A stretch of DNA of 64,000 nt from Granulicella sp. (GCA_027339965.1 DAHWNL010000016.1:1-64000); one strand, 5' to 3'. Numbered from the stretch's first letter, positions 982 to 29,796 are shown. The notes: a model not told the origin generated them from the letters alone. Program-made: numbers and translations.

Positions 982-1005
982 ACGCTTCGAACGATTTACC
1001 AAATT

Positions 1006-1051
1006 CTCCATCTTTCGATGGAGGCAAGTCGATAAACGATCTGCTTATAAT
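1006..1051 (+). promoter_or_regulatory. Perfect 7-4-7 palindrome CTCCATC-TTTC-GATGGAG (1006-1023) followed 22 bp later by TATAAT (1046-1051); probable activator-dependent promoter of operon A
   Basis: Read directly; no good -35 hexamer; GGAG RBS at 1069-1072 before GTG at 1081. Confidence 0.65.
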
Positions 1052-1080
1052 TAGCTCTCTCCCAGACTGGAGCGTGCAAC

Positions 1081-1962
1081 GTGCGCGCAACATGGCAGGA
1101 TTGTTTTGCCGGCGCCCCGGATGTCTTAAGGGGCGGACGCCGGCAACAAACCATCGTCCGGGTCTTGGATATTGAAGTCGGTGGGGATGAGTTTGTCACT
1201 ATGGCGGGTCCGTGCTCGGTGGAGACCGAGTCCCAGCTCATGGCCACCGCCCGTCTTGTTCGCCGCTGCGGCGCCCGTATCCTGCGCGGCGGCGCCTTCA
1301 AGCCACGCAGCTCCCCCTATTCCTTTCAAGGCCATGGCTTGAAGGGACTCAGGATGCTCGCCCGCGCCCGCGAAGAATATGGACTGGCCATCGTAACTGA
1401 GGTCATGTCAGAGTGCGATGTGCCCATGGTGGCCGAGTACGCCGACATACTGCAGATCGGCTCGCGCAGCATGGAAAACTTTCCACTGCTGGAGGCTGCC
1501 GCCCGATCGGGACGGCCTGTGCTTCTGAAGCGCGGAATGGGAGCGACGGTCGCCGAGATGCTCCACTCCGCACAGTTGATCCTCGAATACGGCAATCCTA
1601 ATGTCATTCTCTGCGAACGAGGCATCCGCACCTTCGAAACCTCAATGCGCAACACCTTCGATGTCGCGGCCATCGCCCTGCTCAAGCAGATCTCGCACCT
1701 ACCGGTGATCGCCGACCCCAGCCACGCTGCCGGACATCGCTCCCTGGTTCCACCTCTGGCGCGCGTGGCTGTGGCCGCAGGCGCTGACGGTCTGCTGGTT
1801 GAAGTTCACCCCGATCCCGATCAGGCCTGGAGCGATGGGGAACAATCCCTGGATTTTGTTGAATTCCAGGCGATGATGATCTCTCTGGACCCTTACCTGT
1901 CGCTGCGCTCGCATGTACTCAGCGCGTCCCTTGGTGCAGGGTTGGTGGAGGTTGGTGGGTGA
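1081..1962 (+). CDS. aroF: 3-deoxy-7-phosphoheptulonate (DAHP) synthase, type I-beta, catalytic barrel only
   Basis: [52 protein letters not shown] motifs; 293 aa with no N-terminal ACT/chorismate mutase domain. Confidence 0.92.
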
Positions 1963-3377
1963 GGGGTTCTGTCTTCCTATTTTTAGCTGTCCTGAGTGCT
2001 GCAACGCCTGCGCCCTCGCGTGCCTTTCCACCCCGCGCAGCGGACCGGGCAGAAGCGGATTTCATTGTGACCGCCGCACCGGTCTACGTTCCCTTGGCGG
2101 AGATGCACGGAGGGGAACGCTTCCCCGACGGAGCACAGTTGCTTCTGGTCCATGACGGCATGGCAAAGCCCCTCGTCGCCGGCTTTGCAGATACCGCAGA
2201 TGCCGATGTCTCCTTCGACGCCAAAAGAGTGCTCTTCGCCGGCAAGCGTACCGCCGACGATCCATGGCAGATCTGGGAGCTCACACTCCAGGATGGTTCA
2301 GTGCGGAGCGTCATCCAAACTGGAGCCGACTCCGAGCGGCCCTTCTATCTTCCAGGCGGACGCATGGTCTGGGCGCAGCGCACGGCCTCCGGATTCCGGA
2401 TCGAGTCTGCTCCGGATGGCCATCCTCCCAAAGTTCCATTCCTGAATCCAACCGCAGGCCCCGGCGTGCTGCCGCTCACGTACATCCAGACCAGCACCTT
2501 TCCGACCGCCATTCTGGCCGATGGTCGCATTCTCTTTGAGTCCGGCTACCCGCTCGGAGCAGGTGTCGCCCCTGAGCTGTATGTGGTCTACGCTGACGGC
2601 TCGGGAGTCCAATCTCTCCGTCCCTATCAGGGCCGCGCCCGCTGGGGCGGCTCGCAACTGGCCTCTGGCGACGTAGTGTTCACACAGGGAAGGTCGCTGG
2701 CGCGCTTTACATCTTCGCTGCTGCAGCAGACTCCGATCACCGCTCCCCATGCTGAATACGCCGGCGCGATTCAAGAGACAGCTTCCGGCGAATGGGTGCT
2801 CAGCGCACGCAAAGCCGGCGAAGTTCACTTTGCGATCGATCTTTGGAGGCCAGGAGCGGCAGACCTTGGAACCGCGCTGGCAGAACGCGGCGATGATCTT
2901 GTCGAGCCCGTGCTGCTGGCGCCGCGCACTCCACCCCGGCGTTTTCCCTCGGACCTGCACCCCTGGAGGTACGCCAATCTCCTCGCTCTCGATTCACGGT
3001 TGTCCCTCGAAGGCAATTTGAAGCAGACACCCGCGTCGGTCCGCCTGGAGACCCAGGACCCGAATGGCCGTGTCCAGATCAACGGCACGGCGCCGGTCGC
3101 CCCCGATGGTTCCTTCTTTGTGAAGGTTCCGGGCAACCGCCCGATTCGATTTCTTCTGCTCGACAGGAACGGCGCCGTGCTGCGCCGACAGCGCGGCTGG
3201 TTCTGGATTCGCGGCGGCGAACAGCGCGCCTGCATCGGTTGCCATACGGGACCGGCGCTCTCTCCGGAAAATCGCACGCCTGAAGTGCTGCTGCGCAGCA
3301 CCACTCCGGTTGACCTGACCGGGGATTCAAACCTCACAGCAACGCGCACCGCTGCGCAGGAAGGCAATACGAGATGA
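1959..3377 (+). CDS. Exported hydrazine synthase alpha-subunit-like protein (TolB-like propeller + HZS_alpha-type middle domain, one CXXCH)
   Basis: Signal peptide; [20 protein letters not shown] propeller blade; [27 protein letters not shown]...[12 protein letters not shown] (CIGCH at 3231-3245); GTGA overlap with upstream gene. Confidence 0.75.
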
Positions 3378-5140
3378 TCCTTCGCTCTCTGCTCTTATTC
3401 TCTGTCGCCGTCTCGATTGCCGCTGCGCAAAGCGTCGCACCACCAGCGCGGCCTAACCCGGATGCCGCAAAAGCAGTGGGACGATCGACCATCCGCTTTG
3501 AAGACGCCACCCCCCAGTCCGGAATCCACTTCGTTCACAGCTTCGGATCCGCCAAGCTGAGCTCACTGCTGGAAGGCACCGGCGCCGGCTGCGTGTGGTT
3601 CGACTACAACCACTCCGGCCGCAAGTCGCTCTTCGTCGTCAATGGAAGCACCCTTGACCCGAGCATGACGCCCAATTCCCTGTCGCCAAAGCCTGACCCA
3701 GGTCCGCACGCACATCTGTATCGCAATGACGGCAACGGTCATTTTACCGACGTTACTGCGCAGTCCGGTCTTGATCCGGATCTTTACGGAGACGCAGTCA
3801 CCGTCGCAGACTACGACAACGACGGCTATGAAGACCTGCTGGTCACCGGCTACGGCAAGGTGGTTCTCTATCACAACAACGGCAATGGCACATTTACTGA
3901 CGTCACCCGGCAAAGCGGCATCAAGGTAAACGGCTGGGCTATCAGCTCCACGTGGCTTGACTACGACCGCGATGGCTGCGTCGATCTGTTCGTCGGCCGC
4001 TACGTCAAATTCGACCCCAAATACCGCTCCTATTATGCGGCGGACAACTATCCTGGGCCGCTCAGCTATGCGGGCCAGTCGAACATGCTGTTTCACAACA
4101 ACTGCAACGGCACGTTTACCGACGTCTCCGACAAGTCCGGAATCAGCGCTTCCATAGGCCGCACCATGGGAGTCACCGCAGCCGACTTCGACAACGACGG
4201 CTGGGACGACATCTACGTCGCCAATGACGACACTCCAAACTTCCTCTTCCACAACATGCACAATGGAACCTTTCAGGAGATCGCCAACAACACCGGCGCG
4301 GCCTATGGAGAAGATGGCGAAGCTACATCCTCCATGGGTCCGGTTGCGGCGGACCTCTGGAACCGGGGAGTGTTGGACCTTTGGGTGACCGATGGCAGCT
4401 ACAACCGTCTGCTGAAGAACCTGGGCGCTCCGCAACTGGGATCTCCCCCAACCAAATCCGATTGGCAGGGATTCCAGGATGTTACCGCCGCCAGCGGAAT
4501 CTCCCAGGTCGAGGGGCAGTACGTGAGCTGGGGCAGCGGCGTTTACGACTTCGACAACGACGGCCTGCTGGACATCCTGGTCTTTCACGGCGGGCTGAGC
4601 CATATGATTCCGATGGAGCACACCCTCTTCCGCGGACTGGGCGACGGCAAGTTTGAAGATGCGTCGCGCCAGGCGGGTCCCGTCCTGAGTGTGCGCACCG
4701 TAGCGCGTGGCGCCTGTTTTGCCGACTACTTGAACAACGGCAAAGTTGGCGCTTACGTGGTCAATCTCGGATCAGAGGGAACGCTGCTTCACAACGTCTC
4801 CACCCACACCGGCCACTGGGTCGAAGTTAAACTCGTCGGCGCCATGAGGAAGGGTGATGCAGGTGTTGCGGTGGGAAGTCCTCTGGCGAGGAGCAACCGC
4901 GACGGCATCGGCGCGCGCATCGAGGTCTACACCAGTGGCGTGCGCCGGACTGCGGAGCGAGTGGCCAGCTCCGGCTACCTCTCGCAGAATGAAGGACGCG
5001 TTCACTTTGGCTTGGGCGATGCTTCGGTGATTGACACACTGGTCGTCCGTTGGCCAAGTGGAATTGTACAGACGCTAACAAATCAACCAGTGGATCGTGT
5101 GCTCACCGTGCAGGAGCCGGGAAGAGGGGAGCCGCGATGA
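3374..5140 (+). CDS. CRTAC1-family protein (FG-GAP/VCBS repeats + C-terminal ASPIC/UnbV domain), exported
   Basis: Repeated DYDNDG/DFDNDG and NGNGTFTDV motifs; NRDGIGARIEV...SGYLSQ...HFGLG..VRWPSG; ATGA overlap. Confidence 0.9.
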   Translation: MILRSLLLFSVAVSIAAAQSVAPPARPNPDAAKAVGRSTIRFEDATPQSGIHFVHSFGSAKLSSLLEGTGAGCVWFDYNHSGRKSLFVVNGSTLDPSMTPNSLSPKPDPGPHAHLYRNDGNGHFTDVTAQSGLDPDLYGDAVTVADYDNDGYEDLLVTGYGKVVLYHNNGNGTFTDVTRQSGIKVNGWAISSTWLDYDRDGCVDLFVGRYVKFDPKYRSYYAADNYPGPLSYAGQSNMLFHNNCNGTFTDVSDKSGISASIGRTMGVTAADFDNDGWDDIYVANDDTPNFLFHNMHNGTFQEIANNTGAAYGEDGEATSSMGPVAADLWNRGVLDLWVTDGSYNRLLKNLGAPQLGSPPTKSDWQGFQDVTAASGISQVEGQYVSWGSGVYDFDNDGLLDILVFHGGLSHMIPMEHTLFRGLGDGKFEDASRQAGPVLSVRTVARGACFADYLNNGKVGAYVVNLGSEGTLLHNVSTHTGHWVEVKLVGAMRKGDAGVAVGSPLARSNRDGIGARIEVYTSGVRRTAERVASSGYLSQNEGRVHFGLGDASVIDTLVVRWPSGIVQTLTNQPVDRVLTVQEPGRGEPR

Positions 5141-7188
5141 AACGGATCGGTTCAAGCCAACGCCGAGTTCCCGCCCGCCGGATGTTGATTCCTTCTGCCA
5201 TGATTGCGGCATTGCTCTTGGTTGCATCGTTCCGCGCCCGGAGTGTCCACGCCGACGACACTTCACAAACCAGCCAGGTGCTGGGCTACGCCTCCCCGGT
5301 GGAGTTGCTCTTTTCGCCAGACGGCACGCGGCTCTATGTCCTCTGCCAGGATAGCGGCGAGGTGCGGGTGCTGAATGGAACAACGTACGCTCCCATACAG
5401 ACCATCGCCGTTGGCCACGTTCCGCGCGGATTCTTCCTTTCTCCAGATGGAAGCACACTATTCGTGGCCAACTCCTGGGATGACACCATCTCGGTGATCG
5501 ACACCCGAGCGCTGAAGGTAGTCGCCACATGGCACGTAGGGATGGAGCCATCGAGTGTCGTTGAAGGCTCAGCAGGCAAGTATCTTTACGTCGCCAACCG
5601 CATCAGCAACGACGTTGCGGTGCTGAACGCCCAGACCGGGAGCGAAGTCAAGAGGCTGGCGGCAGGACGCGGGGCAAGCTACATGACGCTTTCGCCCGAC
5701 GGACAGCGGATCTACGTAACGCATGTCTATCCCAATCCCGCTCCCCTTGGCTCACCGCCCGAGTCGGAGATCACGGTTATCGACACGGCCAACGCCGAGG
5801 TGATCAACCGCATTCCCTTGCAAAGTATCGCCGGTGTCTTTCACGTTGCGCTTACCTCCAATAGCCAACTGGGCGTCGTGGCTGAACTGCATCCGAAGAA
5901 CCTGCTGCCGGTGACGCAGGTCGAGCAGGGCTGGGTCTTTGAAGATACGCTTACGTTGTTTGGATCGGATGTACGGAACAAGACGGTCGAAGTGCCGCTC
6001 GACGATCTGGATAGCTACGCGGTGCGACCCTTTGGAGTAGCCATTACGCCGGATGGTTCGCGCCTTTACGTGGGCTCTGGTGGCTCGGACATCGTCACCG
6101 CAATCAACCTGCCGCACCTGCGGCGTTATGTGTACACCCAACACGGCCCCATCGTGTATAACCTTGCTGCCGGCGCCCATTACATAGTGGCGCGCATCCC
6201 GGTGGGCAAGGATCCGCGCGGCATGGTCGTCAGCGCCGATGGCCATCGGCTGCTGGTGGCCAACCGGCTTAGCGACACCATCAGCGTCATCGACACGCCC
6301 ACCAACAAGGTAGTCACCACCATTGCTCTGGCTCCATCCAGGCGCCTGTGGACAGAGAACTTCGGCCTGAAGATGTTCTCCGAAATGACCATCGCCACGC
6401 CGGGGCAGAGGCGCTGCCCGGCCTGTCATATCGATGAGCGGCATCGTAACGCCAAAAGGATGAAATTGACCCCGCAGCAGCAGGTGCAGGCTCTGCGGCG
6501 CGGCCAACAGGCCTTTTATACCGCGCGTTACTCCTTCCATGGCGGCATAGGCTGCACCAACTGCCACATCGACACAACCATGGACGGGATGCGGTGGAAC
6601 TTTGAACCAGCAGGCCTGGGCCGAAACATCGTGGAAAATATGCTGCTGGAGGACATCCGGAACACTGCGCCCTACGATTGGAGCGGCATTAACCCCAACC
6701 TGCCCACCCAGGGCGGGCCGCGGACGGAACAGTTCATCTGGCGCTCACAGAATTTTGACGTCCGCACGCTGGCCGATTTATCTGCCTATATCAACAGCCT
6801 GCCGGCGCGGCCCAACCGATGGCGCCTGCCCAACGGCGAACTCACGCCCTCACAGGAGCGCGGCAAGCAGATCTTTGATCGGACGGTCGACAACTTCGGC
6901 AAGCCCATCCCGCTCGCCAATCGATGCAACTACTGCCACAGTGGCCCGCTGGGAACTGATCACCGGAAGGTTGACGTGGGAACCAGGGGAACAAACGATG
7001 ATTCGGGATTATTCGTAACGGCGCAGTTGACCAACATCGCGCTCACCGCGCCATACCTCCACGACGGCTCTGCGGCCACGCTCGAAGAGATATGGACCGT
7101 CCACAATCCTCACGATCAGCATGGCCGCACCAATGACCTGACCAAGGACCAACTGAACGACCTGATCAACTACCTGCGGACGCGCTGA
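5137..7188 (+). CDS. YVTN beta-propeller fused to di-heme cytochrome c peroxidase/MauG-like domain, 3 CXXCH (HzsB+HzsC-like architecture)
   Basis: LFVANSWDDTISVID-type repeats; CPACH (6415-6429), CTNCH (6553-6567), CNYCH (6925-6939); ERGKQIF and TAPYLHDGSAATLEE; ATG at 5137 overlaps upstream TGA. Confidence 0.85.
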   Translation: MKRIGSSQRRVPARRMLIPSAMIAALLLVASFRARSVHADDTSQTSQVLGYASPVELLFSPDGTRLYVLCQDSGEVRVLNGTTYAPIQTIAVGHVPRGFFLSPDGSTLFVANSWDDTISVIDTRALKVVATWHVGMEPSSVVEGSAGKYLYVANRISNDVAVLNAQTGSEVKRLAAGRGASYMTLSPDGQRIYVTHVYPNPAPLGSPPESEITVIDTANAEVINRIPLQSIAGVFHVALTSNSQLGVVAELHPKNLLPVTQVEQGWVFEDTLTLFGSDVRNKTVEVPLDDLDSYAVRPFGVAITPDGSRLYVGSGGSDIVTAINLPHLRRYVYTQHGPIVYNLAAGAHYIVARIPVGKDPRGMVVSADGHRLLVANRLSDTISVIDTPTNKVVTTIALAPSRRLWTENFGLKMFSEMTIATPGQRRCPACHIDERHRNAKRMKLTPQQQVQALRRGQQAFYTARYSFHGGIGCTNCHIDTTMDGMRWNFEPAGLGRNIVENMLLEDIRNTAPYDWSGINPNLPTQGGPRTEQFIWRSQNFDVRTLADLSAYINSLPARPNRWRLPNGELTPSQERGKQIFDRTVDNFGKPIPLANRCNYCHSGPLGTDHRKVDVGTRGTNDDSGLFVTAQLTNIALTAPYLHDGSAATLEEIWTVHNPHDQHGRTNDLTKDQLNDLINYLRTR

Positions 7189-7201
7189 AAGGATACGGAA
7201 C

Positions 7202-8302
7202 ATGGGAGGGATGCTCAACAAGCTTTGCCTGGGTGTGGCGTTTGCGGCGATGGCAACGCCTGCGTTTGCCGCGGCGCGTCCATCGCCTCCATCGCCCCAG
7301 ATGCCGCATTACCGCTTTGTCAACTACACCACCGCGAACGGACTACCCAACAATCACGTCTACTCTGTCCTGGTGGATGGAAGCCGCATCTGGGCGGGTA
7401 CGGATGACGGGCTGGGCTTGTATGAAGACGGCAGATGGAGAACCTTTACCACCGAGGATGGCCTGGCGCAGCAAGCTGTGCTCTCGCTGGCGCTGGACAA
7501 ACGAACCGGCGACGTGTGGGCGGGAACGATGGGCGGGCTGAACCGCATCTCCGGTGGTCGCATCATCGCCACCTATAACCAACTGAACTCAGGACTGAGC
7601 AACGATATCGTCTACGGCGTATCGGTAGAAGGAAAAAATGTGTGGGTCGCCACCGCCGCAGGAGCCTGCCGGCTGAACCTGGATACGAACCAATGGTCGA
7701 TTTATACCGACACCAACACCCCCATGAAGGAGATCTGGGCCTATGGCGTTTCCGCCGCGCCGGACAAGGTGTACTTCGCTATCTGGGGTAGCGGCCTGCT
7801 GGAGTACAACCAGCAAACCAGGCTCTGGGACATCTACGAAGATCCCGACCATCAGACCGACATCGTGCTCTTCAAAGACCAGGGGCTCATCCACGACATT
7901 GTCTCCTCCGTCAGTTATGTGGAGAAGACCGTCTGGGTGGCCACTTACTTCGGCGCCAGCCGCTACGATGGCCGCAATTGGCATAACTTCCTGACCAAGG
8001 ACAGCGGTCTGCCGTCGAACTTCATCAACTACGTCAAAGCGGTGGACGCCAACCATGCATGGTTCTGCACCGACAAGGGTCTGGCTTACTACGACGGCGC
8101 CAACTGGGCCGTCTACACACGTTCGCTCACCAACGGCAAACCGGAGATGTGGGTAAGCGATGCCCAGGGTCATGTAGCCCATATCCCTGTCACCACCGCA
8201 CCAGCCAACAACTATATGCTCGGCATCGACTTCCAGGGCCGCGATCTCTGGATCGCAACAGCCAAGGGGCTGAGTCACGGAATCTTCCAACAACAACCAT
8301 AA
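7202..8302 (+). CDS. Exported stand-alone beta-propeller of the two-component-regulator-propeller type
   Basis: Signal peptide; YTTANGLPNNHV, IWAGTDDGL, SGLSNDIV, SGLPSNFI, LWIATAKGL repeats; no TM or kinase domain. Confidence 0.8.
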   Translation: MGGMLNKLCLGVAFAAMATPAFAAARPSPPSPQMPHYRFVNYTTANGLPNNHVYSVLVDGSRIWAGTDDGLGLYEDGRWRTFTTEDGLAQQAVLSLALDKRTGDVWAGTMGGLNRISGGRIIATYNQLNSGLSNDIVYGVSVEGKNVWVATAAGACRLNLDTNQWSIYTDTNTPMKEIWAYGVSAAPDKVYFAIWGSGLLEYNQQTRLWDIYEDPDHQTDIVLFKDQGLIHDIVSSVSYVEKTVWVATYFGASRYDGRNWHNFLTKDSGLPSNFINYVKAVDANHAWFCTDKGLAYYDGANWAVYTRSLTNGKPEMWVSDAQGHVAHIPVTTAPANNYMLGIDFQGRDLWIATAKGLSHGIFQQQP

Positions 8303-8313
8303 GGAGCACCATC

Positions 8314-8814
8314 ATGAGTTCAATTGCCGCAAATCTTGAGACCGTCGCCCACACACCGATCGAGAAGCACGCCGTTACCAACTACGGCGTCCTCAACGAA
8401 GCCTACTGTTATGACAAGCCGAGTTCCTTTTCGCGTGGGATGAAAATCGACCTCGGTGAGGTGACGATCCTGTTCATCTCAGGCACCGCATCAATTGACG
8501 AGCACGGCAAGAGCGTGCACATCGGCGACTTCCGCGCACAGATGCGGCGCACACTCTCCAACATCAAAGGCCTGCTGGAGAGTGAAGGCTGCACCTGGCG
8601 CGACATCGTGCGGACTACCTGCTATCTGCGAGACATCGAACGCGATTACGAGGCCTTCAACGAGGAACGGACGGCCTTCTACAAGGAACAGGGGCTTGAT
8701 CCCCTGCCCGCATCGACCGGCATTCAAGCCATTCTCTGCCGGCCGGAGTTGCTGATCGAGATCGAGGCCATCGCCATGTTCCGCAGCGCCAAGGGGAAGA
8801 TCAGCAAGGAGTAG
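8314..8814 (+). CDS. Rid (YjgF/YER057c/UK114)-fold protein resembling the FkbO/Hyg5 chorismatase catalytic domain
   Basis: AAGGAG RBS at 8301; AYCY..PSSFSRG, LFISGTASI, H.GD..AQ..TL.NI, LCRPELLIEIEA. Confidence 0.8.
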   Translation: MSSIAANLETVAHTPIEKHAVTNYGVLNEAYCYDKPSSFSRGMKIDLGEVTILFISGTASIDEHGKSVHIGDFRAQMRRTLSNIKGLLESEGCTWRDIVRTTCYLRDIERDYEAFNEERTAFYKEQGLDPLPASTGIQAILCRPELLIEIEAIAMFRSAKGKISKE

Positions 8815-8819
8815 CGATC

Positions 8820-10904
8820 ATGGTCAAGGGATGGTTGGCGGTCGCCGCCTGGCTTTGTGCGGCGGCCGTAGCGGGCACGGCCCTGTGTCAGACGCCCAAA
8901 GAAGAGTCGACCGCGCCTTCGGACGGGAAGATGGCGAAGTCCTGGTGTTCCTGCGGCGCCCATCCGCCGGGTCCGGAGCCCGTATGGACGGCCAAGCCGT
9001 ATGCGAATGTACCGGAGGACCTGGAGCCGTACGCCAGGTTCGTTAAGCCATACAACTTCTATTACCTGCAACCGACGATCTGGAACGGGCCCGGACGAAA
9101 TGTACCCCCTCCCCGGAATCTGACCGAGGTGCGCATCGGTTTCGTGGGCCCCATCTCCCTGCACGACCCTGACTACGTCATGGGCATGCACATGTTGCAA
9201 GGCGTGCAACTGGCCATAGATGAAGCGAACGCCCGCGGCGGGTACGGTGGCAAGCCGTTCCGCCTGATGCTGCACGACGACTACAACAACTGGCAGGCAG
9301 GGGCAGTCGGCGGCAATGTCCGTCCCACCAACCCCGCCATCTGGGGCGCCGGCCTGGATCCAGCCGTCCAGTGCATCTACGACGACAAAGACTGGGCCAT
9401 CTTTGGCTCCATCAGCTCCGAGACTACGCATGAGATGCTGCGTCTGGCGCTCAAAGCCGAGATTCCCATCGTCAATTCAGCTTCCACGGATCCCACCATC
9501 CCCGAAACCTCCGTACCCTGGTACTTCACGGATCTGCAAGATGACCGCGTGCAGGGCTACACGCTGGCGCGCCGGATCTACACCCAGCTTGGCCTCAAAA
9601 GCGTTGCGATCCTGCGTGTGAACAACCGCTATGGCCGCATGGGTATTGTCAAATTTCACTCGGCCTCGCTCCGCCTCGGTCATCCCGTCATCATTGAACA
9701 GACATTTACGGCTGGGACCACCGATTTTTCGCGAGAGCTAAGAAACATCCAGGACTCGCGCGCCGACGCTATCGTCTTGTGGACCGACGAAGCTCCCGCA
9801 GCCATGATCTTGAAGCAGATGCGCGCCATGGGAATGAAACAGCCCGTCTTTGGCTCCTATCGCACTCTGGGCCCCACGTTGCTCGCCCAGGCTGGCTCGG
9901 CGGCGGAGGGATTTGAAGCTGTGTTTCCCTACGATCCCACCCGCACAGACCCGAACTGGATAGACTTCAATCGTCGCTTCGAAGCCCGCTTCCATGAAGC
10001 GCCCGATCAGCTTGCGTCCCTTGCCTACGATGCCATGAACATCCTGCTCGACTCCATCTGCAGAGCCGGCCTGAATCGTGTGCGCATCCAGGACGCCCTG
10101 GACGATGTGCGGCAGTATGACGGCGTCACCGGGCACATGGTCTTCGATCCCAACCGGAAGAATGTGGCGCCCATGTACCTGGGCACAGTGCATGATGGAA
10201 AGATCACCTACCGGCTCGCTCCCATGTCGAAGTCACAGACCGCGGAGCAGGCCCCAGAACAGGACACAGAGCAGGTCCCAGAACAGAAAACAGAGCAGGC
10301 CCCCGCCGCAAAGGCCCGTGCAGGTCAACTTGCCGCTGCGCACCCTGTGCCGGCGCCCACTCCCTATGCACGCGTGGGTGAGGACGGCATTCATTACTTC
10401 GGACCAGCACAGGCCAGCGTTCCTCGCGGCCCCTTGCGCGCCGTCCTCTTCGGCCCCCAGGCCGAAAAACTGGCGCATTCGCCCGCAATCAAAGCGCAGC
10501 TAGCCGCAGCCGCACAGAGGGGGCGAGCATGGCTGCTCCTACCCGTGGACAGCGACCAACAGTGGGGCGTTGCTTCAACTCAATTGGTCCGTTCCTTGTG
10601 GAACGAGCACGCTCTGGCGATCATTGCTCTCGGCCGCAAAGCCGGCCATCTGTCGGAGCAACTGGCGCTGAAGACCTTCGTCCCGGTTGTGGCTGTTTCC
10701 GACGACCGAACGCTCACCTCGGCGGCGGTGCCGTGGATCTTTCGCCTGCCGACTGGAACTTCCGCCCTGGCGGCACTGCGCCTGCTCACCGACGCCGAAG
10801 CCCGCGGTGGGCCGAACCCCGAGCGGGTAAGGGATGTGCTGGCCTCGGGAGATCCGATCTCTGGATTCGCCTTTCTTCCCAGCGGAGATCCACGCGTGCA
10901 ATAG
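8820..10904 (+). CDS. Exported LivJ-like (type I periplasmic binding fold) ligand-binding protein with a second, partial binding-protein domain
   Basis: Signal peptide; VRIGFVGP..GVQLAIDEANARGG..GKP, AYDAMNIL, YDGVTGHMVFD; C-terminal partial repeat after low-complexity linker. Confidence 0.8.
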   Translation: MVKGWLAVAAWLCAAAVAGTALCQTPKEESTAPSDGKMAKSWCSCGAHPPGPEPVWTAKPYANVPEDLEPYARFVKPYNFYYLQPTIWNGPGRNVPPPRNLTEVRIGFVGPISLHDPDYVMGMHMLQGVQLAIDEANARGGYGGKPFRLMLHDDYNNWQAGAVGGNVRPTNPAIWGAGLDPAVQCIYDDKDWAIFGSISSETTHEMLRLALKAEIPIVNSASTDPTIPETSVPWYFTDLQDDRVQGYTLARRIYTQLGLKSVAILRVNNRYGRMGIVKFHSASLRLGHPVIIEQTFTAGTTDFSRELRNIQDSRADAIVLWTDEAPAAMILKQMRAMGMKQPVFGSYRTLGPTLLAQAGSAAEGFEAVFPYDPTRTDPNWIDFNRRFEARFHEAPDQLASLAYDAMNILLDSICRAGLNRVRIQDALDDVRQYDGVTGHMVFDPNRKNVAPMYLGTVHDGKITYRLAPMSKSQTAEQAPEQDTEQVPEQKTEQAPAAKARAGQLAAAHPVPAPTPYARVGEDGIHYFGPAQASVPRGPLRAVLFGPQAEKLAHSPAIKAQLAAAAQRGRAWLLLPVDSDQQWGVASTQLVRSLWNEHALAIIALGRKAGHLSEQLALKTFVPVVAVSDDRTLTSAAVPWIFRLPTGTSALAALRLLTDAEARGGPNPERVRDVLASGDPISGFAFLPSGDPRVQ
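10245..10303 (+). repeat. In-frame 24-nt tandem repeat (~2.5 copies) encoding EQAPEQDT-EQVPEQKT-EQAP linker
   Basis: gagcaggccccagaacaggacaca / gagcaggtcccagaacagaaaaca / gagcaggcccc. Confidence 0.85.
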
Positions 10905-10967: not shown

Positions 10968-12410
10968 CTACAGCCACTTCATCCAGCCGCTGGCGGGCAG
11001 GTCTGGAGACAGGAAGTTGGCGGCGCTCCCTGTGGCGCGCGCTACAGCCTCGGCGGCCAGACGGCCGCTGCGCACGGCCCCCTCCATGGTCGAAGGCCAG
11101 CCGGACTGGGTCCAGTCGCCGGCCAGATAAAGATGATCGCCAGCAGCCTCCGCGTTGGGGCGGAAGCGGTCCAGACCGGGAGTTACAGAGAAGGTAGCGC
11201 GAGCCTCCTTGAGCACTGCGGACTTGAGCACCTTGGCCTGGCTGACCGCGGGAAAGAAGCTGGCCAGCTCAGTCAATGCTGAATGAAGAATCTGCTTCGG
11301 GGTCTGCTCAAGCTCCGCGTGTGAGGCGCTTACCACCAGCTCGACGTTGTATCCCGACGCAGGAGTCTCCCGGCTCTCCCGGCTGCGGATCCGTGTCTTG
11401 TTGAAGATCCACTGGATGCGGGTATCCAGAAGGGCCGCGTGATCGAGATCGGTGATCTCGCGATCCAGCCACAGGTGAACTGTCGTGATGGGCGAATGTG
11501 TGAAGCGGGAGAGCAAGGGCAGAATGCGCTCGCGCTGCGGCGACCCCTCTGGGAGCGTAGCCAGCAGCCGCGCGGTCTGCTCAAATGGCAGGGCGAGGAT
11601 CAGGTCTGGTGCGGTGTGCCGCGTAACCTGCCCGGCGCCATCCGAAATCACGGCCTGCCATAAACCACCGGGCAGCATTTCGAGACTCTCTACACTGGCG
11701 CGATAACTCAGCCTTGCTCCCTGCTGCTCGGCCAGCCGAGCCACCTGGCCATAGAACTCCGAGAGCGGCTGGGAGGGTATGCCGAAGCGGCCTCCAGCGG
11801 CGGATCTCAGAAAAGACTCATAAAAGACCTGGCCGGCATAACGAGTGGAGCACCGCTCGAAGGTGTCATTCAACGTGCCAACGACGATGGGCTCCCAGAA
11901 GTGGCGAATGGCGCGTTCTGTCTGGCCAGTACGCTTCAGCCAGACGGAAAACGCCTCATCGTCTTCTGTCGGATAGCCGCGGAGAAAACCCAATAGGCCG
12001 AGGGCGATGCGAAACTTGTCGGCTAAAGAGAGCATGGGAGCGCGCAAAAAGCTCACCGCATTGTGGGCCGGCGCCGGCAGCAAGCCTGCCGTGATCTCGC
12101 TGCGTCGTTGGGGAACTTCGGTCCGGAATGGTTCAAGAAAGGTGATGCTGTCGTACCAGCGAATGTGCTCGGAGGCGCCCGAGAGCCGACAAAGATCCAC
12201 CAGATTGGTGCAGCAGCCCAGCAGCACATGCTGCGAGTCGATGACCTCGCCCAGAGCGGGGTGGGTATAGGAGTAGGCGCGGCCTCCGGCGAAGGGTTTG
12301 CGCTCCAGCAAGGATACGCCGGCTCCCGCCCCGGAGAGAGCAACCGCGGCAGCCAGGCCCGCCGCTCCTGCGCCGATGACCAGAACATCCGGCATGGGGG
12401 AATGAGTCAT
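10968..12410 (-). CDS. hpnE: Hydroxysqualene dehydroxylase HpnE
   Basis: VIGAGAAGLAAA FAD motif, IDSQHVLLGCC, EARATF, LAGDWT..GWPSTMEGAVRSG; downstream of hpnC/hpnD; ATG at 12410 overlaps hpnD stop. Confidence 0.9.
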   Translation of the reverse strand: MTHSPMPDVLVIGAGAAGLAAAVALSGAGAGVSLLERKPFAGGRAYSYTHPALGEVIDSQHVLLGCCTNLVDLCRLSGASEHIRWYDSITFLEPFRTEVPQRRSEITAGLLPAPAHNAVSFLRAPMLSLADKFRIALGLLGFLRGYPTEDDEAFSVWLKRTGQTERAIRHFWEPIVVGTLNDTFERCSTRYAGQVFYESFLRSAAGGRFGIPSQPLSEFYGQVARLAEQQGARLSYRASVESLEMLPGGLWQAVISDGAGQVTRHTAPDLILALPFEQTARLLATLPEGSPQRERILPLLSRFTHSPITTVHLWLDREITDLDHAALLDTRIQWIFNKTRIRSRESRETPASGYNVELVVSASHAELEQTPKQILHSALTELASFFPAVSQAKVLKSAVLKEARATFSVTPGLDRFRPNAEAAGDHLYLAGDWTQSGWPSTMEGAVRSGRLAAEAVARATGSAANFLSPDLPASGWMKWL

Positions 12411-13441
12411 CCCAGACATCTTATCCATAGGGACTCCGCCATGCCCTTGGCCAGGATGGCCAGCTTGCGCGCTTTGGGAACCGAGACGCGCTTTTGAAAG
12501 ACAGCCTCCGGGTGAGCGGCGATTCGCTCCAGCAGTTCGCGGTAGATCTGGGCCAGCACACGCATGGCCGGACGGGCCTCCGGATCCAGCAGCGGAATCA
12601 GATCTGCGGAGCTGAGGTAGTACTCACGAGCACGTTCGATCTCCATCCGCAACAAATCTCTCGTGGCGGCGTCGACCGGAGAACCCGCACAGACCCTGCA
12701 GATAGCCTCAACACTGCTGCCCGTCTGCCGAAGCGCGTCCTGGGGCAGGTAGATGCGTCCGCGTTCAGCGTCTTCGCGCACGTCGCGCAGGATATTAGTG
12801 AGCTGAAAGGCGATGCCGGTGCGCTCGGCCAACTCCTCGGCGCGTGGGTCGGCGTAGCCAAAGATACGAATACAGACCAGGCCAACCACCGAAGCCACTA
12901 GATAGCAGTACCGGTAGAGATCACTGAAGGTATCGTAGACGTCCAGCGAACGCGCGGCGCCAGCCTGACCTGCCTCGGTTCCCGCGCTGCCGAGTTCAGG
13001 GCCAGAGACTTTCGGATCAATGGTCAAGCGCGTCACGCCGGGTTGAACCGGCTGCAAGTCGAGTGTGGTTCCCTGCACCAGCTTTTCCAGCAGCTCATCA
13101 GAGATGCCAAAGCGCCGCTGCGTATCATTCAGAGCCATGAAGATAGGATCGGAGACGACCGCGGCGGAACGAGCCTCGCGCCAGTTGGCCGTCCAGGCAG
13201 CCATGGCCTCACGGCGGGCTTCCACAGAGAGCGTCTCGTCATCGGCCAGGTCGTCCGCCTTGCGCATGAAGGCGTACACGGCGCACATGGCGTTGGATTT
13301 GTTCTTTGGCAGCACACAGAAGGAGTAGTAGAAGTTCTTGGCCTCGCGTCTGGCGATCGTGCGGCAGAACCCATAGGCGGCCTTCAGCTCGGGAGACTGC
13401 GGCTGCGAAGCACTTTGGCGCGGCATGGATTCAGCACTCAT
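12407..13441 (-). CDS. hpnD: Presqualene diphosphate synthase HpnD (phytoene/squalene synthase family)
   Basis: NFYYSF, YAFMRKADDLADD, YCYLVASVVG, QLTNILRDVREDAERGRIYLP. Confidence 0.88.
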   Translation of the reverse strand: MSAESMPRQSASQPQSPELKAAYGFCRTIARREAKNFYYSFCVLPKNKSNAMCAVYAFMRKADDLADDETLSVEARREAMAAWTANWREARSAAVVSDPIFMALNDTQRRFGISDELLEKLVQGTTLDLQPVQPGVTRLTIDPKVSGPELGSAGTEAGQAGAARSLDVYDTFSDLYRYCYLVASVVGLVCIRIFGYADPRAEELAERTGIAFQLTNILRDVREDAERGRIYLPQDALRQTGSSVEAICRVCAGSPVDAATRDLLRMEIERAREYYLSSADLIPLLDPEARPAMRVLAQIYRELLERIAAHPEAVFQKRVSVPKARKLAILAKGMAESLWIRCLG

Positions 13442-14454
13442 GCGATACGATCCTTACCAGCCGGCGGTTCTACCGCGGCGCGGCGCGGCAGAGCCGCCAG
13501 CAGCTTGCCCGCCAGCGCCCCTGCGAACAGCCGCAGCTTGGTAGCCTTGGAGACGACCGGGCGAGACTGCAGGGTGTCATAGCCCTGCGCGGCAATGGCA
13601 TCCAGAATGGCATTGCCGCCTTTGACGAACAGCCGCAGACTGGAGGCCAGATCCCCGCCAACCATCGTCGTGAGGCGCCCTCCGCGGTTCAGGCGAGCGC
13701 GAGCGTCGGCAACCAGGAATTCCATCATGGCCCGCACGTTGGCATCAAAGCGACGGGCGATGAGCTGGTCATCCGATACATGGAAGCGACGCATGGCGTC
13801 GGCTGGGATATAGCGGCGTCCGCGAGCCCGATCTTCGACGATGTCCTGATAGAAGTTCGCCAGTTGCAGGCCCGTACAAATCTCATCGGAGAGCCGCAGG
13901 AGCTCTTCGGAGCGATAGCCGCAAACCATCAGCACAAGACGCCCTACGGGATTGGCCGAGCAGCGCGAGTACGATTCCAGGGTCTCCAGAGACTCGTGAT
14001 GGGTATAAACCTGGTCCTGCTCGAAGGCCGAGATCAGATCTTCAAAGGGTTCGATGGGAAGGTTGCACTGCGCAATGGTAGGTTGCAGAGCGACGTAGAC
14101 AGGGTGCCGCGAACGCTCCGGCTGCAGGAAGCACTGCCGCAGCATGGCCCTCCAGGTGGAGAGCAGCCGCGTAGCCGTGTCCCTGTCCGCCACCTCATCC
14201 CCAAGATCATCCGAGGTCCGACAGAAGGCATAGACGCTGTGGAAGTGTGGGCGCAACGCCGCAGGAAGAACCAAGGCGGCCACGTGGAAGTTCTCATAAT
14301 GCGTCGTGGCCAGCATCTTGCACCATGCCTGCGCCTCCGCCAGCGAGGGGCGCGTGGCCGGCGTCAGGTACACCGAGGGCGCACCCAGAAGCCGGTCGTC
14401 CCACCCCTCGGGCAAGCCGGTAACAACCGCCGGGTTGTCGGAGCGCGGGTTCAT
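13438..14454 (-). CDS. hpnC: Squalene synthase HpnC
   Basis: HYENFHVA, YAFCRTSDDLGDE, DLISAFEQD, SANPVGRLVL, LQLANFYQD. Confidence 0.92.
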   Translation of the reverse strand: MNPRSDNPAVVTGLPEGWDDRLLGAPSVYLTPATRPSLAEAQAWCKMLATTHYENFHVAALVLPAALRPHFHSVYAFCRTSDDLGDEVADRDTATRLLSTWRAMLRQCFLQPERSRHPVYVALQPTIAQCNLPIEPFEDLISAFEQDQVYTHHESLETLESYSRCSANPVGRLVLMVCGYRSEELLRLSDEICTGLQLANFYQDIVEDRARGRRYIPADAMRRFHVSDDQLIARRFDANVRAMMEFLVADARARLNRGGRLTTMVGGDLASSLRLFVKGGNAILDAIAAQGYDTLQSRPVVSKATKLRLFAGALAGKLLAALPRRAAVEPPAGKDRIA

Positions 14455-15620
14455 CGCTGCCGCCCTCCAGACATCCCCTCCGAAATCTCTTCAGTGACCC
14501 GGCCTCCGGCCTGCGTGGCGACAGCCTCCGCAGCGCCGCTCGGCAAGCCGCCGGGGAAGATGATCGTCTTGATTTCAGGCGTCACTCCGTCCGCCGGCCG
14601 GGTCATCATCGCGCGGAAGACCTTGGGAAGATCTTCAATCGTGGCCGCTCCGGTATGAAAGTCATGCGCACGGAACCTTCCGGAGACGATGAGATCAAAG
14701 GCGCATCGAGCTGTAGCGGGAGTGTGGTGAAAGCTGGCCTTGAGAGTCAGATCCGAGTAGTGGATGAGATTGGTGTCGAGAGCCACGGTAGTGCCACTCG
14801 GGGGTCCTCCGAAGAGATTGATCAAACCTCCCTTGCGCGCCATCCGCACCGCCCACTGCCAGGCCTCCGGCGTCGCCACAGCCTCCAGGACAATGTCCGC
14901 GCCCCGGCCCTCCGGGGTCAGCGCGCGGGCAGCGGCGATCGGGTCCGGGACATCCGAGATGCGCACGACATCTCCCGCTCCAAAGTGGCGCGCTGTGGCG
15001 ATCTGGTCTCTGCGCTTCACCACGGCGATAACCCGCAGGCCCGCCAGCGACGCTGCATGGATGAAGAGCAAGCCAATCGGTCCTGCGCCCAGGACGATGG
15101 CCGTCTTTCCTTTCGACTCTCCACCATCGGCTGCGAAGGAGACTCCGGACTCCTCCAGTCCGCGAATGACGCAGGCCAGCGGCTCGGTGAGAGCAGCGTC
15201 CTCAAAGCTGAGGCTATCTGGAAGATGCAGAGTGTTCTTCTCCACGATCCTGGCCGGAATGCGAATGAACTCCGCGTAAGCCCCATTGTTGAACAAAAGG
15301 TTGTCACAAAGGTTCTGTTGCTGGTTCCGGCAAAAGAAACACTGGTCGCAGGGTGCGGAGTTGAGCGGAACCACACGGTCGCCCACCGAAAAGGCAGTGA
15401 CTCCCTGGCCCCGCTCGAACACGGTGCCGGCCAGTTCGTGGCCGAAGAGGCGGTCCAGTGTCAGCATCTTGGCGTGATAACCCCGGCGGTAGACCTTCAG
15501 GTCCGTGCCACAGGTGAGGGCTGCACCAACCCGCACGACCAACTCCCCCGGCCCGGCTGAGGGTATTGGCACGTCCTCGATGCGCAGATCCTCCTGGCCA
15601 CGCAGAACGGCGGCTCTCAT
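14451..15620 (-). CDS. Zinc-dependent medium-chain alcohol dehydrogenase
   Basis: CGTD, GHE, CDQCFFC...C structural Zn cluster, GAGPIG NAD motif; ATG at 15620 chosen (MRAAVL). Confidence 0.9.
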   Translation of the reverse strand: MRAAVLRGQEDLRIEDVPIPSAGPGELVVRVGAALTCGTDLKVYRRGYHAKMLTLDRLFGHELAGTVFERGQGVTAFSVGDRVVPLNSAPCDQCFFCRNQQQNLCDNLLFNNGAYAEFIRIPARIVEKNTLHLPDSLSFEDAALTEPLACVIRGLEESGVSFAADGGESKGKTAIVLGAGPIGLLFIHAASLAGLRVIAVVKRRDQIATARHFGAGDVVRISDVPDPIAAARALTPEGRGADIVLEAVATPEAWQWAVRMARKGGLINLFGGPPSGTTVALDTNLIHYSDLTLKASFHHTPATARCAFDLIVSGRFRAHDFHTGAATIEDLPKVFRAMMTRPADGVTPEIKTIIFPGGLPSGAAEAVATQAGGRVTEEISEGMSGGRQR

Positions 15621-15820
15621 GGTGTGGCGAACGCCTTCCTCCCGCCTGTCGCCTTGCTGGACAGATCGAACCATCTCTCTATCATCTCATCCCGCGCCAC
15701 CCGTAGGATGAAGCAAAGCCTCGGTTTGGCGACGCGCAAGGTTGCGCCCGGAAACGCTCTGAACCTGGAGAGCGAGCTGTGAAGATGCCGCATCTGATAC
15801 CCTGAGCGAAGCGCGATTCC

Positions 15821-19301: not shown

Positions 19302-20156
19302 ATGACGACTGCAACATCAGAAGTACGCGAGATCAAGATTGCCCACAGCCCCGACTCCGACGACGCCTTCATGTTTTACGGCCTGGCTACCAACAAGGTA
19401 CGGGTGCCGGGCTACAAGTTCACTCACACCCTCACCGACATCGAGACCCTGAATCGCCGCGCCATCGACGATCAGTACTATGATGTGACGGCCATCAGTT
19501 TCCACGCCTACCCCTATATTCAGGAAAACTACACCCTGATGGCCTGCGGCGGCTCCGTGGGCGAGAACTATGGACCGATGATCGTTGCAGCGAGAAACTA
19601 CACACTGGACGAGATGAAGAAGCTGAAGATTGCGGTCCCGGGGACCCTGACCACCGCCTATCTGGCCCTGAAGCTCTTCGCCCCCGAAGTGGAGACGGCG
19701 ACGCTCAGCTTCGACAAGATCATTCCAGCGGTGCTCTCCGGAGAGTACGATGCCGGACTCATCATCCACGAGGGCCAGCTCACCTACAGCCGTGACGGTC
19801 TCACCAAAATTCTGGACCTCGGCGTGTGGTGGCGTCAGCAGACAGCCCTTCCCCTACCGCTGGGAGGAAACGCCATTCGCCGCTCTCTGGGCCCCCAGGC
19901 TCAGTCAGTCACCACCAACGCCCTGCGCGAGAGCATTCAGCATGCACTGGATCATCGCGATGCCGCCCTGGAGTACGCCATGCAGTTTGCCCGCGACCTG
20001 GACAGCTCATTGGCCAACCGCTTTGTGGGCATGTACGTCAACGAGCGTACCTTGAACTACGGTGACGATGGTCGCGAGGCCATTCGGCGGCTGCTGGAGA
20101 TGGGCTACGAGCGCGGGGTGATACCGCACAAGGCCCATGTGGACTTCGTAGGGTAG
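19302..20156 (+). CDS. mqnD: 1,4-dihydroxy-6-naphthoate synthase (futalosine menaquinone pathway)
   Basis: HSPDSDDAFMFY, DIETLN, YGPMIV, IAVPGTLTTA, IIHEGQLTY, LPLPLGG, MYVN. Confidence 0.9.
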   Translation: MTTATSEVREIKIAHSPDSDDAFMFYGLATNKVRVPGYKFTHTLTDIETLNRRAIDDQYYDVTAISFHAYPYIQENYTLMACGGSVGENYGPMIVAARNYTLDEMKKLKIAVPGTLTTAYLALKLFAPEVETATLSFDKIIPAVLSGEYDAGLIIHEGQLTYSRDGLTKILDLGVWWRQQTALPLPLGGNAIRRSLGPQAQSVTTNALRESIQHALDHRDAALEYAMQFARDLDSSLANRFVGMYVNERTLNYGDDGREAIRRLLEMGYERGVIPHKAHVDFVG

Positions 20157-24428: not shown

Positions 24429-24454
24429 CATCCACCTGCGTTTACCTCCTTTGC

Positions 24455-24490
24455 AGAGGGTGCGTGACCCGCATCCTCTTTTCTTTTTTT
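24455..24490 (+). terminator. Rho-independent terminator
   Basis: AGAGGGTGCG-tgacc-CGCATCCTCT stem followed by T-rich run. Confidence 0.85.
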
Positions 24491-24744
24491 GAACCGCCTT
24501 CCCTTATCCACAGCCACTTCGAGCGCAGATGATTCAAGCACTCGATCTTCCTATCCGCTCTAACGCCGGGACCCCGGCAGGCTCGCCCGCTAAGGTAGTC
24601 GCTGAGCGCCACAACAAGCTTGATTCGATGGGTTCATGGGCAAGGGGAAGAGCCGCAGGCGCTTCCATGCACGAGCGATTCCCTCACGGACCGCAGCCCG
24701 ACTTCGTCCACCCGCCCACGGCTGGCACGACGCCGCCTGCGGTT

Positions 24745-25176
24745 TCAGCGGGCGTCCGCAGGCTCCCGGTTCGCCGCCGAATCGTCCGCGAAGGTGCGCT
24801 GGAAGTCCGCCGGGTGAGCCTTGGCCGGAGGCGCACTTCCCTTGCGCTTGGCGCGAAGATAGGCGATCAGGTCGTGGATCTGAGAAGGGGTCAGCATACC
24901 TCCAAAGGCGGGCATCATCATGCCCCCATCATGAATCTGACGCCACATCTGCTGCCTGGTCAGGCGCTTGCGCACCAACTGAAGATCCGGCCCTCGGCCA
25001 CCGCCCACCCCTGCCGGGCCGTGGCAGTGCGCGCAGCCACGCTGGGCAAACAACTCCGCGCCACGCAGCTTCGCCGTGGAGCTGGCAGCCATCTGCGTGG
25101 GAGCGCACAGAATCAGAGAGCTCACTGCGATCCAACCCGCGACAACAACCTTGCTGGAGGAGATTGACATCCGCAT
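24745..25176 (-). CDS. Exported mono-heme class I cytochrome c
   Basis: GAELFAQRGCAHCHG...GPDL, MPAF, LIAYL. Confidence 0.88.
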   Translation of the reverse strand: MRMSISSSKVVVAGWIAVSSLILCAPTQMAASSTAKLRGAELFAQRGCAHCHGPAGVGGGRGPDLQLVRKRLTRQQMWRQIHDGGMMMPAFGGMLTPSQIHDLIAYLRAKRKGSAPPAKAHPADFQRTFADDSAANREPADAR

Positions 25177-25183
25177 CGTGGCC

Positions 25184-27493: not shown

Positions 27494-27740
27494 CCTGATA
27501 CCTCAAGCGTGGTGAATCATCGCTTCGATCTTGGCCCACGTTGGCCGTGGCATAGGGCCTGCGACTGGAATTCCGCAAATCATTCAAAACAGCACAGCGC
27601 CCGGAGAGGCCGTGCAGCCGCCTGACCCAAGAGCCAGGTTGCCACCCGAAACAACTCCGCAGCTCATGCATTTGAGCCGTCCCTCCAGGGACCCAGCAGC
27701 CGGCCTGGCGGGAAAGACAGGCAACCGCTCCTTGTGTGGC

Positions 27741-29690: not shown

Positions 29691-29796
29691 GATAAGGCGA
29701 GAGATGTCCTTTCAACGGCAACTCAAGCGCTCGATCGAAGCGCCGGCGAGCCCCAATGACCAGAAGCGCACGCCGCAACTTCATCCGTGTGATCCA

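Follow-up and report, generated by a model that had tools for sequence, protein, structure and literature searches.

A hydrazine synthase-like haem operon with a putative chorismate-derived acid module in Granulicella sp.

Why should relatives of the anammox enzyme hydrazine synthase (HZS) be encoded together with a 3-deoxy-D-arabino-heptulosonate 7-phosphate (DAHP) synthase and a Rid-family protein? The question is raised by an operon at 1081..10904 of a 64,000-nucleotide stretch from Granulicella sp. (GCA_027339965.1, DAHWNL010000016.1:1-64000; hereafter the window). Open reading frame (ORF) calling placed seven co-oriented genes here, all on the + strand. Genes 1 to 4 overlap by 4 nt at each of their junctions (GTGA/ATGA), and the remaining three gaps measure 13, 11 and 5 nt. 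This gene order, the overlaps and the domain identities had been proposed in an earlier note on the stretch; the ORF calls and the Pfam and NCBIfam scans agree with it, and HZS_alpha, CCP_MauG and UnbV_ASPIC were all matched by Pfam in products of the operon.

Our answer, to which we assign a probability of roughly 0.45, is that the operon belongs with the published operons of non-anammox HZS homologues and carries a linked aromatic-acid module, i.e. that a periplasmic peroxidase-type haem complex is combined with a cytoplasmic module for a chorismate-derived acid, probably a hydroxybenzoate. The exported, HZS-shaped architecture is well supported by homology and structure prediction, and its reaction is inferred. 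The accessible text of PMC12758564 (Hagglund et al., Genome Biol Evol 2025) describes non-anammox HZS-homologue clusters of clades I-III, in which alpha-like and fused beta-gamma genes are co-located with a CRTAC1 gene and two genes for ABC binding proteins. Since this core cluster is already published, the headline is not new, and the idea that the operon represents an undescribed kind of cluster did not survive. Relative to that text, the new element is the association with a regulator-free DAHP synthase and with a Rid protein that has the residues of Hyg5-type chorismatases in one domain.

The hydrazine synthase-like haem proteins

Gene 2 (1959..3377, +) encodes an HZS alpha-like protein, predicted to be exported, with a six-bladed propeller and an HZS_alpha middle domain (PF18582, 1e-16, residues 373-429). 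A sequence search against the PDB returned HZS alpha (5c2v_A) as the sole match. The same chain was the top Foldseek match of its model (predicted local distance difference test, pLDDT, 87) with E 3e-20 and TMq 0.80, far above TolB. The protein is a short alpha form with one CxxCH (425-429) and no haem-alphaII domain. Gene 4 (5137..7188, +) encodes an HZS beta-gamma-like fusion, in which a YVTN (YNCE/lactonase) propeller is followed by a dihaem domain of the CCP_MauG family (5e-8). It matched 5c2v_B along the entire propeller, including the beta-type loop (E 2e-36), and the gamma chain 5c2v_C with E 4e-15. The top match of its model was again 5c2v_B (Foldseek E 5e-30; VIA Z 42.6, root-mean-square deviation 2.8 over 338 residues); because the propeller filled the match lists of both Foldseek and VIA, the gamma identity rests on sequence. 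The dihaem domain contains the CxxCH motifs at 473 and 597, Trp515 and the distal His662. A third CxxCH (427-431) brings the total of gene 4 to three and lies within an insertion of about 46 residues (6337..6474, +; boundaries approximate). Genes 2 and 4 are genuine but catalytically altered HZS relatives. As a side observation, PF18582 also exceeds its cut-off in Bacteroides thetaiotaomicron, a control genome.

The interface of the two proteins was modelled on the orthologues from locus L049, which are 56% and 59% identical to the window proteins. This alpha-like and beta-gamma pair reached an ipSAE of 0.84 in three runs, with a contact agreement of at least 96% and a partner pLDDT of at least 87, against 0.02 for the best of three controls; in the calibration, the ipSAE mark was reached by 116/157 solved complexes and 2/215 mismatched pairs. 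In the model, the loop after the alpha haem (423-445, with the invariant Asn439) meets the beta loop (258-272) and two gamma stretches (453-458 and 491-501). As HZS itself is a solved structure, such a pass shows likeness rather than binding. Nonetheless, the products of genes 2 and 4 very probably form a complex, which by homology and prediction would be an exported alpha/beta-gamma haem-c complex with an HZS-like build. Genes for haem-c maturation are present in the genome.

The complex almost certainly does not synthesise hydrazine, judging from its residues. The scores against the NCBIfam HZS models for alpha, beta, gamma and BC were 40.5, 158.8, 64 and 157.7 bits with cut-offs of 800, 560, 625 and 1250 bits, i.e. 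5-28% of the cut-off; gene 4 accordingly remained below the cut-offs of NF052340 and NF052342. An equivalent of alphaTyr591 is absent from gene 2, in which the CxxCH is followed by TGPALSPEN without Tyr and the protein ends at 472. The positions of betaGlu253, gammaCys165 and gammaAsp168 (HZS numbers obtained by offsets of +39 and +34 applied to the PDB chains) are occupied in gene 4 by Gln261, Gly526 and Thr530. Among 46 aligned beta-gamma proteins, the Glu253 column contains Arg in 23, Gln in 12 and Glu in 3, the Cys165 column Cys in 33, Asp in 9 and Gly in 4, and the Asp168 column Leu in 25 and Thr in 15. Conserved in this alignment are W515 and H662 (46/46 each), R529 (45/46) and Q525 (42/46). 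His662 corresponds to the distal ligand of the second haem, and Trp515 takes the position of gammaHis144, for which the P-F-x-(W/H)-x-G motif was used as the phmmer alignment is shifted there. In HZS, haem alphaI is ligated by Tyr591 and a separate domain carries haem alphaII (accessible text of PMC12758564 and of bioRxiv 10.1101/2023.01.22.525020). With alphaTyr591, haem alphaII, betaGlu253 and gammaAsp168 missing, hydrazine synthesis is very unlikely, and the restraint of the earlier note in not claiming it was well placed, as was its HZS-like reading of both proteins. Of the three findings that it named as refuting its reading, none occurred: there is an HZS_alpha match with structural likeness, a confident interface between the products of the genes starting at 1959 and 5137 is predicted on the orthologous pair, and homologous clusters do contain DAHP synthase and Rid genes.

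The partners of an anammox metabolism were also sought. A search of the genome with PF13447 (hydroxylamine oxidoreductase, HAO) gave no match, and the control search was likewise empty. Scans of three of the 21 multi-CxxCH ORFs, the two of 312 residues with 10 motifs not among them, and of one ORF in the window gave no HAO- or hydrazine dehydrogenase (HDH)-like protein. Eight CxxCH motifs occur in a single ORF, which matches class-I cytochrome repeats, not HAO/HDH.

Haems have been added to beta-gamma proteins in several ways according to lineage: eight or four at the N-terminus, four at the C-terminus, as a separate c554 gene, or by insertion. These lineage-specific extra haems point to the need for an external electron path. 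The CxxCH insertion occurs in 7/46 aligned proteins (the window protein, its second copy on contig C70 and L013-L017) and was modelled with low pLDDT. It shares with the start of gamma the same Gly-to-CxxCH spacing with a period of 46 (profile E 3e-5 to 0.015). Five of the seven copies were among the top 75 matches, where unrelated cytochromes score alike; a tandem duplication of the first gamma helix with its CxxCH is suggestive only.

The DAHP synthase/Rid module and its distribution

Gene 6 (8314..8814, +) encodes a single-domain Rid/YjgF protein of 166 residues (PF01042, Ribonuc_L-PSP). Seven of its residues match the chorismatase type (R41, G57, Y112, R119, G136, C142 and E149), and all are invariant in the 16 sequences of its family apart from G136, which is kept in at least 90%. 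The matching Tyr and the two Arg presumably bind the substrate. The catalytic Arg of the RidA imine deaminases is lost, as PAS134 aligns to PAR of the RidA-family chains in the PDB and the Ser is found in 16/16 sequences. The significance of this Arg follows the accessible part of PMC4433059, in which the arginine-less groups Rid4-7 have no known function. At 13 other examined loci the Rid match lies in a longer ORF; in 12 of the 13, the full set of motifs is divided between two domains like that of Hyg5, the first holding YxxxNxxR and PASTGI and the following one FxR, SGTA and CRxxLxE. The three-domain protein of locus L035 has Hyg5 (5AG3) as top PDB match (E 3e-8), and in the alignment its motifs coincide with Hyg5 Y147, R154, G173, R220, G240, C327 and E334. 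Residues of Hyg5 were counted along the PDB chain, and the signature of PMC7170507, given there in Nat-hyg5 numbers, was shifted by an offset of 9 to match. In the accessible text of that paper, E334 is the catalytic acid and Gly/Gly/Cys is the signature of the Hyg5 type, which forms 3-hydroxybenzoate. The mapping of gene 6 onto chorismatases rests on the motifs and on the three-domain homologues, which themselves score 42-49 bits against TIGR04444; in the ESM Atlas, gene 6 falls only into automatic 'L-PSP/Rid' clusters. On somewhat better than even odds, gene 6 would act on chorismate. A homotrimer may rebuild the chorismatase site between subunits, and residues and context suggest 3-hydroxybenzoate as the most likely product. 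A role as substitute chorismate mutase was rejected, the genome having its own AroQ-type mutase.

Gene 1 (1081..1962, +) encodes a type I-beta DAHP synthase (PF00793, DAHP_synth_1, 3e-74) that exceeds the TIGR01361 cut-off of 268 with 365 bits. It keeps the motifs AGPC, KPR and DPSH, and C45, K74, R76, H215, E241 and D252 are conserved to at least 95% in 21 sequences. The profile search found no match to the N-terminal regulatory domain of other DAHP synthases. It is an extra copy, since a housekeeping DAHP synthase is encoded beside chorismate mutase on another contig (C54). Likewise, 35 of 37 Rid-linked DAHP synthases were without a match to the N-terminal domain common to 21 others, from which the profile had been built. 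In a tree of 58 rows, two having been dropped for a missing anchor motif, the Rid-linked enzymes are scattered among the others as four starred clades and two single rows. Repeated recruitment is likely but not established.

Records titled Acidobacteriota, Planctomycetota, Latescibacterota, Elusimicrobia and Acidimicrobiia all contain this gene set, which is therefore no chance association. The closest named records for gene 4 are from Acidobacteria/Acidobacteriaceae (68-90% identity). We compiled 67 distinct beta-gamma loci (71 minus 4 duplicates; matches below 190 bits dropped), of which 42 are uncut by contig ends; these 42 are biased towards relatives. Genes for alpha, CRTAC1, Reg_prop and the binding protein were each present in 41/42 uncut loci, Rid in 36 and DAHP synthase in 23, the latter never without Rid (the floor of 150 bits for DAHP synthase excludes a weak match in L045). 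For the genome level, 400 genomes of the phylum were drawn evenly and three candidates per genome were scored for beta-gamma. A match was present in 22/400 (~5%, two of them weak) and the Rid family in 35/400; Rid was found in 22/22 genomes with beta-gamma and in 13/378 others. On follow-up, these 13 Rid-only genomes gave no strong gamma match (best E 2e-10). The 22 beta-gamma genomes span 13 family codes. Rid lay within about 10 kb in 16 of 25 beta-gamma places and DAHP synthase in 10. The distribution is patchy, as 9/40 near relatives have a full-length match to gene 4. At the genome level the haem cluster is nearly always accompanied by the Rid/DAHP synthase module, and the module is independent of it. 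Chance neighbourhood of DAHP synthase and Rid was rejected by the recurrence in loci and by the genome-level co-occurrence.

Some loci stand apart. At L086 (contig C1 of genome G044), a divergent beta-gamma gene has a three-domain Rid gene ~5 kb away and no match for alpha, CRTAC1, Reg_prop or binding protein. At L073 (9578-11507), L074 and L075, from three related genomes, Rid is located directly upstream of a Leu/Phe/Trp-type dehydrogenase gene, amid genes for multihaem cytochromes and cytochrome b. At L064 (5422-9678), in a genome without an HZS-like match, Rid is downstream of a 2-oxoglutarate-Fe(II) oxygenase gene and near genes for a UbiA/MqnP-like prenyltransferase and prephenate dehydratase.

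Gene 7 (8820..10904, +) encodes a full LivJ-type binding protein to which part of a second binding-protein domain is joined by a linker (PF13458, Peripla_BP_6, 8e-46, two stretches); distant clusters have two separate genes in its place. A search for the LivH/LivM permease (PF02653) gave no match in the 98.9% complete genome, with the control positive in 12/14. As no such permease was found, gene 7 does not belong to a standard importer. Several arginines are conserved in its family (R208, R243, R270, R273, R285 and R348) and would suit an anionic ligand.

Proposed function and rival explanations

The reaction we propose runs as follows. Electrons would enter via the bis-His haem, aided by the extra haems, and reach the open gamma-I-like haem, which would reduce or activate a small oxidant, most likely peroxide and possibly an N-oxide. 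The loop after the alpha haem would pack against the beta loop and the active-site helix of gamma, and the alpha haem would be a second site. In the cytoplasm, the feedback-free DAHP synthase would raise the flux into the shikimate pathway, and the Rid homotrimer would cleave chorismate to pyruvate and an aromatic acid, most likely 3-hydroxybenzoate. In the weakest step, the acid would leave the cytoplasm and bind to the transporter-less binding protein, and it would serve the haem complex as substrate, co-substrate or mediator. Direct use of the chorismate-derived product by the haem complex is a tentative proposal and somewhat less likely than not.

Several observations weigh against this proposal. 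Rid is missing in 6/42 and DAHP synthase in 19/42 uncut clusters. Conversely, of 25 places anchored on Rid, 11 lie in HZS-like clusters, six are beside a DAHP synthase gene without an HZS-like gene and eight have neither, and five genomes with Rid outside HZS-like clusters gave no gamma-domain or HZS_alpha match, the gamma search having no positive control. As Rid and DAHP synthase also occur together without haem genes, the module works without the haem complex. Because the genomes are kin, the co-occurrence counts overstate independence and no P-value is given. Gene 6 scored 33 bits (E 4e-8) against TIGR04444 with its cut-off of 325, its best PDB sequence matches are ordinary RidA-family proteins, and a profile of its homologues ranked FkbO and Hyg5 (E 6e-8 and 7e-9) below RidA-family chains. 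In the approximately unbiased (AU) test, a single origin for the DAHP synthases linked to Rid was rejected only marginally (p-AU 0.042). The closest solved relatives of gene 7 are annotated as amino-acid binders, and binders of the aromatic-acid type, whose ligand we assume here, rank lower. Where the window protein has Gly526, 33 of the 46 homologues, the C70 copy among them, carry the third haem-linking Cys. Finally, neither an exporter nor a decorating enzyme is among the seven operon genes.

These results divide the remaining claims of the earlier note. A chorismatase-like Rid is borne out by the conserved residues and by three-domain homologues matching Hyg5, the neighbourhood survey found Rid and DAHP synthase again in homologous clusters, and the binding protein is indeed an orphan. 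Its use of the chorismate product as substrate of the haem complex was not upheld, with DAHP synthase missing so often and the module occurring also without HZS-like genes. Nor was the 'oxidative' nature of the machine, since reductive activation would agree at least equally well with a bis-His second haem and with extra electron-transfer haems that keep recurring.

The main rival, although we regard it as rather unlikely, is that DAHP synthase and Rid help the haem complex indirectly by supplying a quinone precursor or a soluble redox mediator to the electron chain, while the complex acts on something else, e.g. in the detoxification of peroxide or nitric oxide. Six of the eight Rid-alone loci adjoin multihaem cytochromes (L070, L073-L075, L083 and L084), the prenyltransferase and prephenate dehydratase neighbours of Rid at L064 would fit as well, and the co-occurrence is tighter in genomes (22/22) than in loci (16/25 beta-gamma places). 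Such a supply leaves the two conserved orphan binding proteins and Reg_prop (41/42 loci) unexplained, and the Hyg5-type signature favours 3- over 4-hydroxybenzoate (accessible text of PMC7170507).

With lower probability still, Rid is no chorismatase and either controls the truncated DAHP synthase in trans by binding chorismate or prephenate, or has a different activity of the Rid type. The lack of an own regulatory domain in 35/37 Rid-linked DAHP synthases is in line with this, and so is the lack of a known function for the arginine-less Rid4-7 (accessible part of PMC4433059). In contrast, the Rid family keeps the catalytic Glu and the Gly/Gly/Cys signature with little or no change, three-domain chorismatase-like proteins replace Rid in other clusters, and Rid is without a nearby DAHP synthase gene in 13/36 uncut loci.

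Slightly less probable again is a signalling device with the acid as signal, the binding proteins and Reg_prop as receptors, and a haem complex that modifies or destroys the acid or senses redox state. The orphan LivJ-type proteins without a permease in the genome speak for it, together with Reg_prop as a sensor-domain repeat of two-component systems. The seven genes, however, encode no kinase, regulator or membrane-spanning protein (no transmembrane-like stretch by hydropathy scan), nor is any of these among the annotated families recurring around the cluster.

That the operon encodes a true hydrazine synthase of an anammox organism so far unrecognised is highly improbable: the best matches in both sequence and structure are HZS subunits, and the accessible text of PMC10732223 put forward an anammox-type role for other HZS-like genes, but the NCBIfam scores are far under the cut-offs, Tyr591, haem alphaII, Glu253, Asp168 and, in the window copy, Cys165 are absent, the eight-CxxCH ORF is of the class-I cytochrome type, and the accessible text of PMC12758564 comes to a like conclusion on the family.

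Returning to the haem complex with its chorismate-derived acid, a more specific and doubtful version is that the nearest relatives of HZS are a widespread periplasmic two-site haem enzyme. It would couple an oxidant or N-oxide activated at the gamma-I-like haem to a chorismate-derived acid at the alpha haem, the acid being made by a homotrimeric single-domain chorismatase and presented by transporter-less binding proteins. If so, HZS would have arisen by swapping the aromatic co-substrate for ammonia, and the single-domain Rid would be a minimal form of the three-domain Hyg5/FkbO enzymes. The only known relatives of HZS lack an assigned reaction (accessible text of PMC12758564). The link of DAHP synthase to a chorismatase-like Rid is the first concrete substrate-side lead that we found for these clusters, and a single-domain chorismatase, if confirmed, would give the arginine-less Rid group a function. 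For annotation, about 5% of the sampled genomes of the phylum (22/400) have genes liable to be taken wrongly for anammox markers.

Operon context and comparison with known systems

The two remaining genes of the operon encode propeller proteins predicted to be exported. Gene 3 (3374..5140, +) is a CRTAC1-family FG-GAP propeller with an ASPIC/UnbV domain (PF13517 7e-42, PF07593 2e-23), and gene 5 (7202..8302, +) a stand-alone Reg_prop beta-propeller (PF07494 2e-11). Export was called by hydropathy scan rather than by a signal-peptide predictor: a hydrophobic stretch at the N-terminus is present in the products of genes 2, 3, 4, 5 and 7 (Kyte-Doolittle 12-mer mean 2.1-2.6) and absent from those of genes 1 and 6 (1.0 and 0.9). 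A second complete copy of the operon is present in the same genome (contig C70, 133071-142955; locus L054), with 78-88% protein identity and ~80% DNA identity from window position 1002 onward. The stretch common to both copies upstream of gene 1 (1002..1080, +), at the start of which their blastn match begins, is a possible promoter region; a promoter scan gave no sigma-70-like site with 3.0 expected, and no terminator-like site was called at the 3' end of the operon. Near the C70 copy, a four-CxxCH c554-like gene lies ~3 kb downstream with a HipA-like kinase gene in between, and an eight-CxxCH cytochrome gene ~6 kb upstream.

Upstream of the operon, an amidase gene (115-981) is truncated by the contig start. 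Five close relatives keep the order TPR-FG-GAP-ASPIC protein, amidase, DAHP synthase; the amidase was rejected as a core part since it is confined to close relatives and not found at the C70 copy. Downstream, two squalene/phytoene synthase genes, a flavin oxidoreductase and a zinc dehydrogenase gene (10968-15674, -), which we take to be hpnC/D/E-like, converge on the operon end. A gene of the menaquinone futalosine pathway (PF02621, presumably MqnD-like) at 19302-20156, 8 kb downstream, is probably unrelated, though relevant to a supply of quinones. The region 20829-33659 encodes an outer-membrane barrel protein, a cytochrome c, a TPR protein with five CxxCH, another CRTAC1 protein and a Reg_prop/Y_Y_Y histidine kinase with a LuxR-type regulator.

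In comparison with anammox HZS (Kuenenia stuttgartiensis, PDB 5C2V; NF052339-NF052342), the operon proteins share the six-bladed propeller with HZS_alpha domain, the seven-bladed propeller with loop insertion, the CCP-like dihaem domain with a bis-His second haem and, here as a prediction, the alpha/beta-gamma contact. They differ by an identity of 15-27% and by the extra genes.

With bacterial dihaem cytochrome c peroxidase (CCP), MauG and MbnH, gene 4 has in common two c-haems with an intervening Trp. This inter-haem Trp515 is kept, as are the bis-His second haem and the distal Gln525, whose CCP/MauG-type role in this likeness we assume. The propeller fusion, the alpha partner and the His/His second haem set gene 4 apart, the second haem being ligated by His/Met in CCP and by His/Tyr in MauG.

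The closest system is that of the published clusters (accessible text of PMC12758564, also for what follows on them). Likewise in our operon, the alpha-like gene is upstream, CRTAC1 is between alpha and beta-gamma, and the binding-protein genes are downstream. Both have a short alpha without haem alphaII and without Tyr591, a lost beta-loop Glu and Trp at the gammaHis144 position, and the paper reports these residue losses for its clusters as well. The operon is most like clade II by gene order and short alpha. Clade II has no additional CxxCH; the operon has one, in an internal insertion that is absent from the close relatives L018 and L049. Unlike the published clusters, it has this internal 46-residue insertion with a third CxxCH, fused binding proteins, Gly at the gammaCys165 position and two copies in one genome. 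Genes for Reg_prop, DAHP synthase and Rid/chorismatase are not discussed in the accessible text, and the main text gave no match for DAHP, phosphoheptulonate or chorism (labels of Fig. 4c not covered). In a literature search whose coverage left out most subscription journals, no paper tied a chorismatase or DAHP synthase to HZS homologues; hzs-like genes are mentioned in the accessible text of PMC10732223, where a broader family acting on different substrates is suggested.

On the side of the chorismatases, gene 6 shares with Hyg5, FkbO and XanB2 (5AG3, 5A3K and 4BPS) the motifs FxR, SGTAS, YxxFxxxR, PA(S/A)TGI and CRx(D/E)LLxExE and keeps the equivalents of E334, C327, G240 and G173 of Hyg5. 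In those enzymes, the motifs are spread over two domains of a three-domain monomer, whereas gene 6 combines them in one domain of 166 residues.

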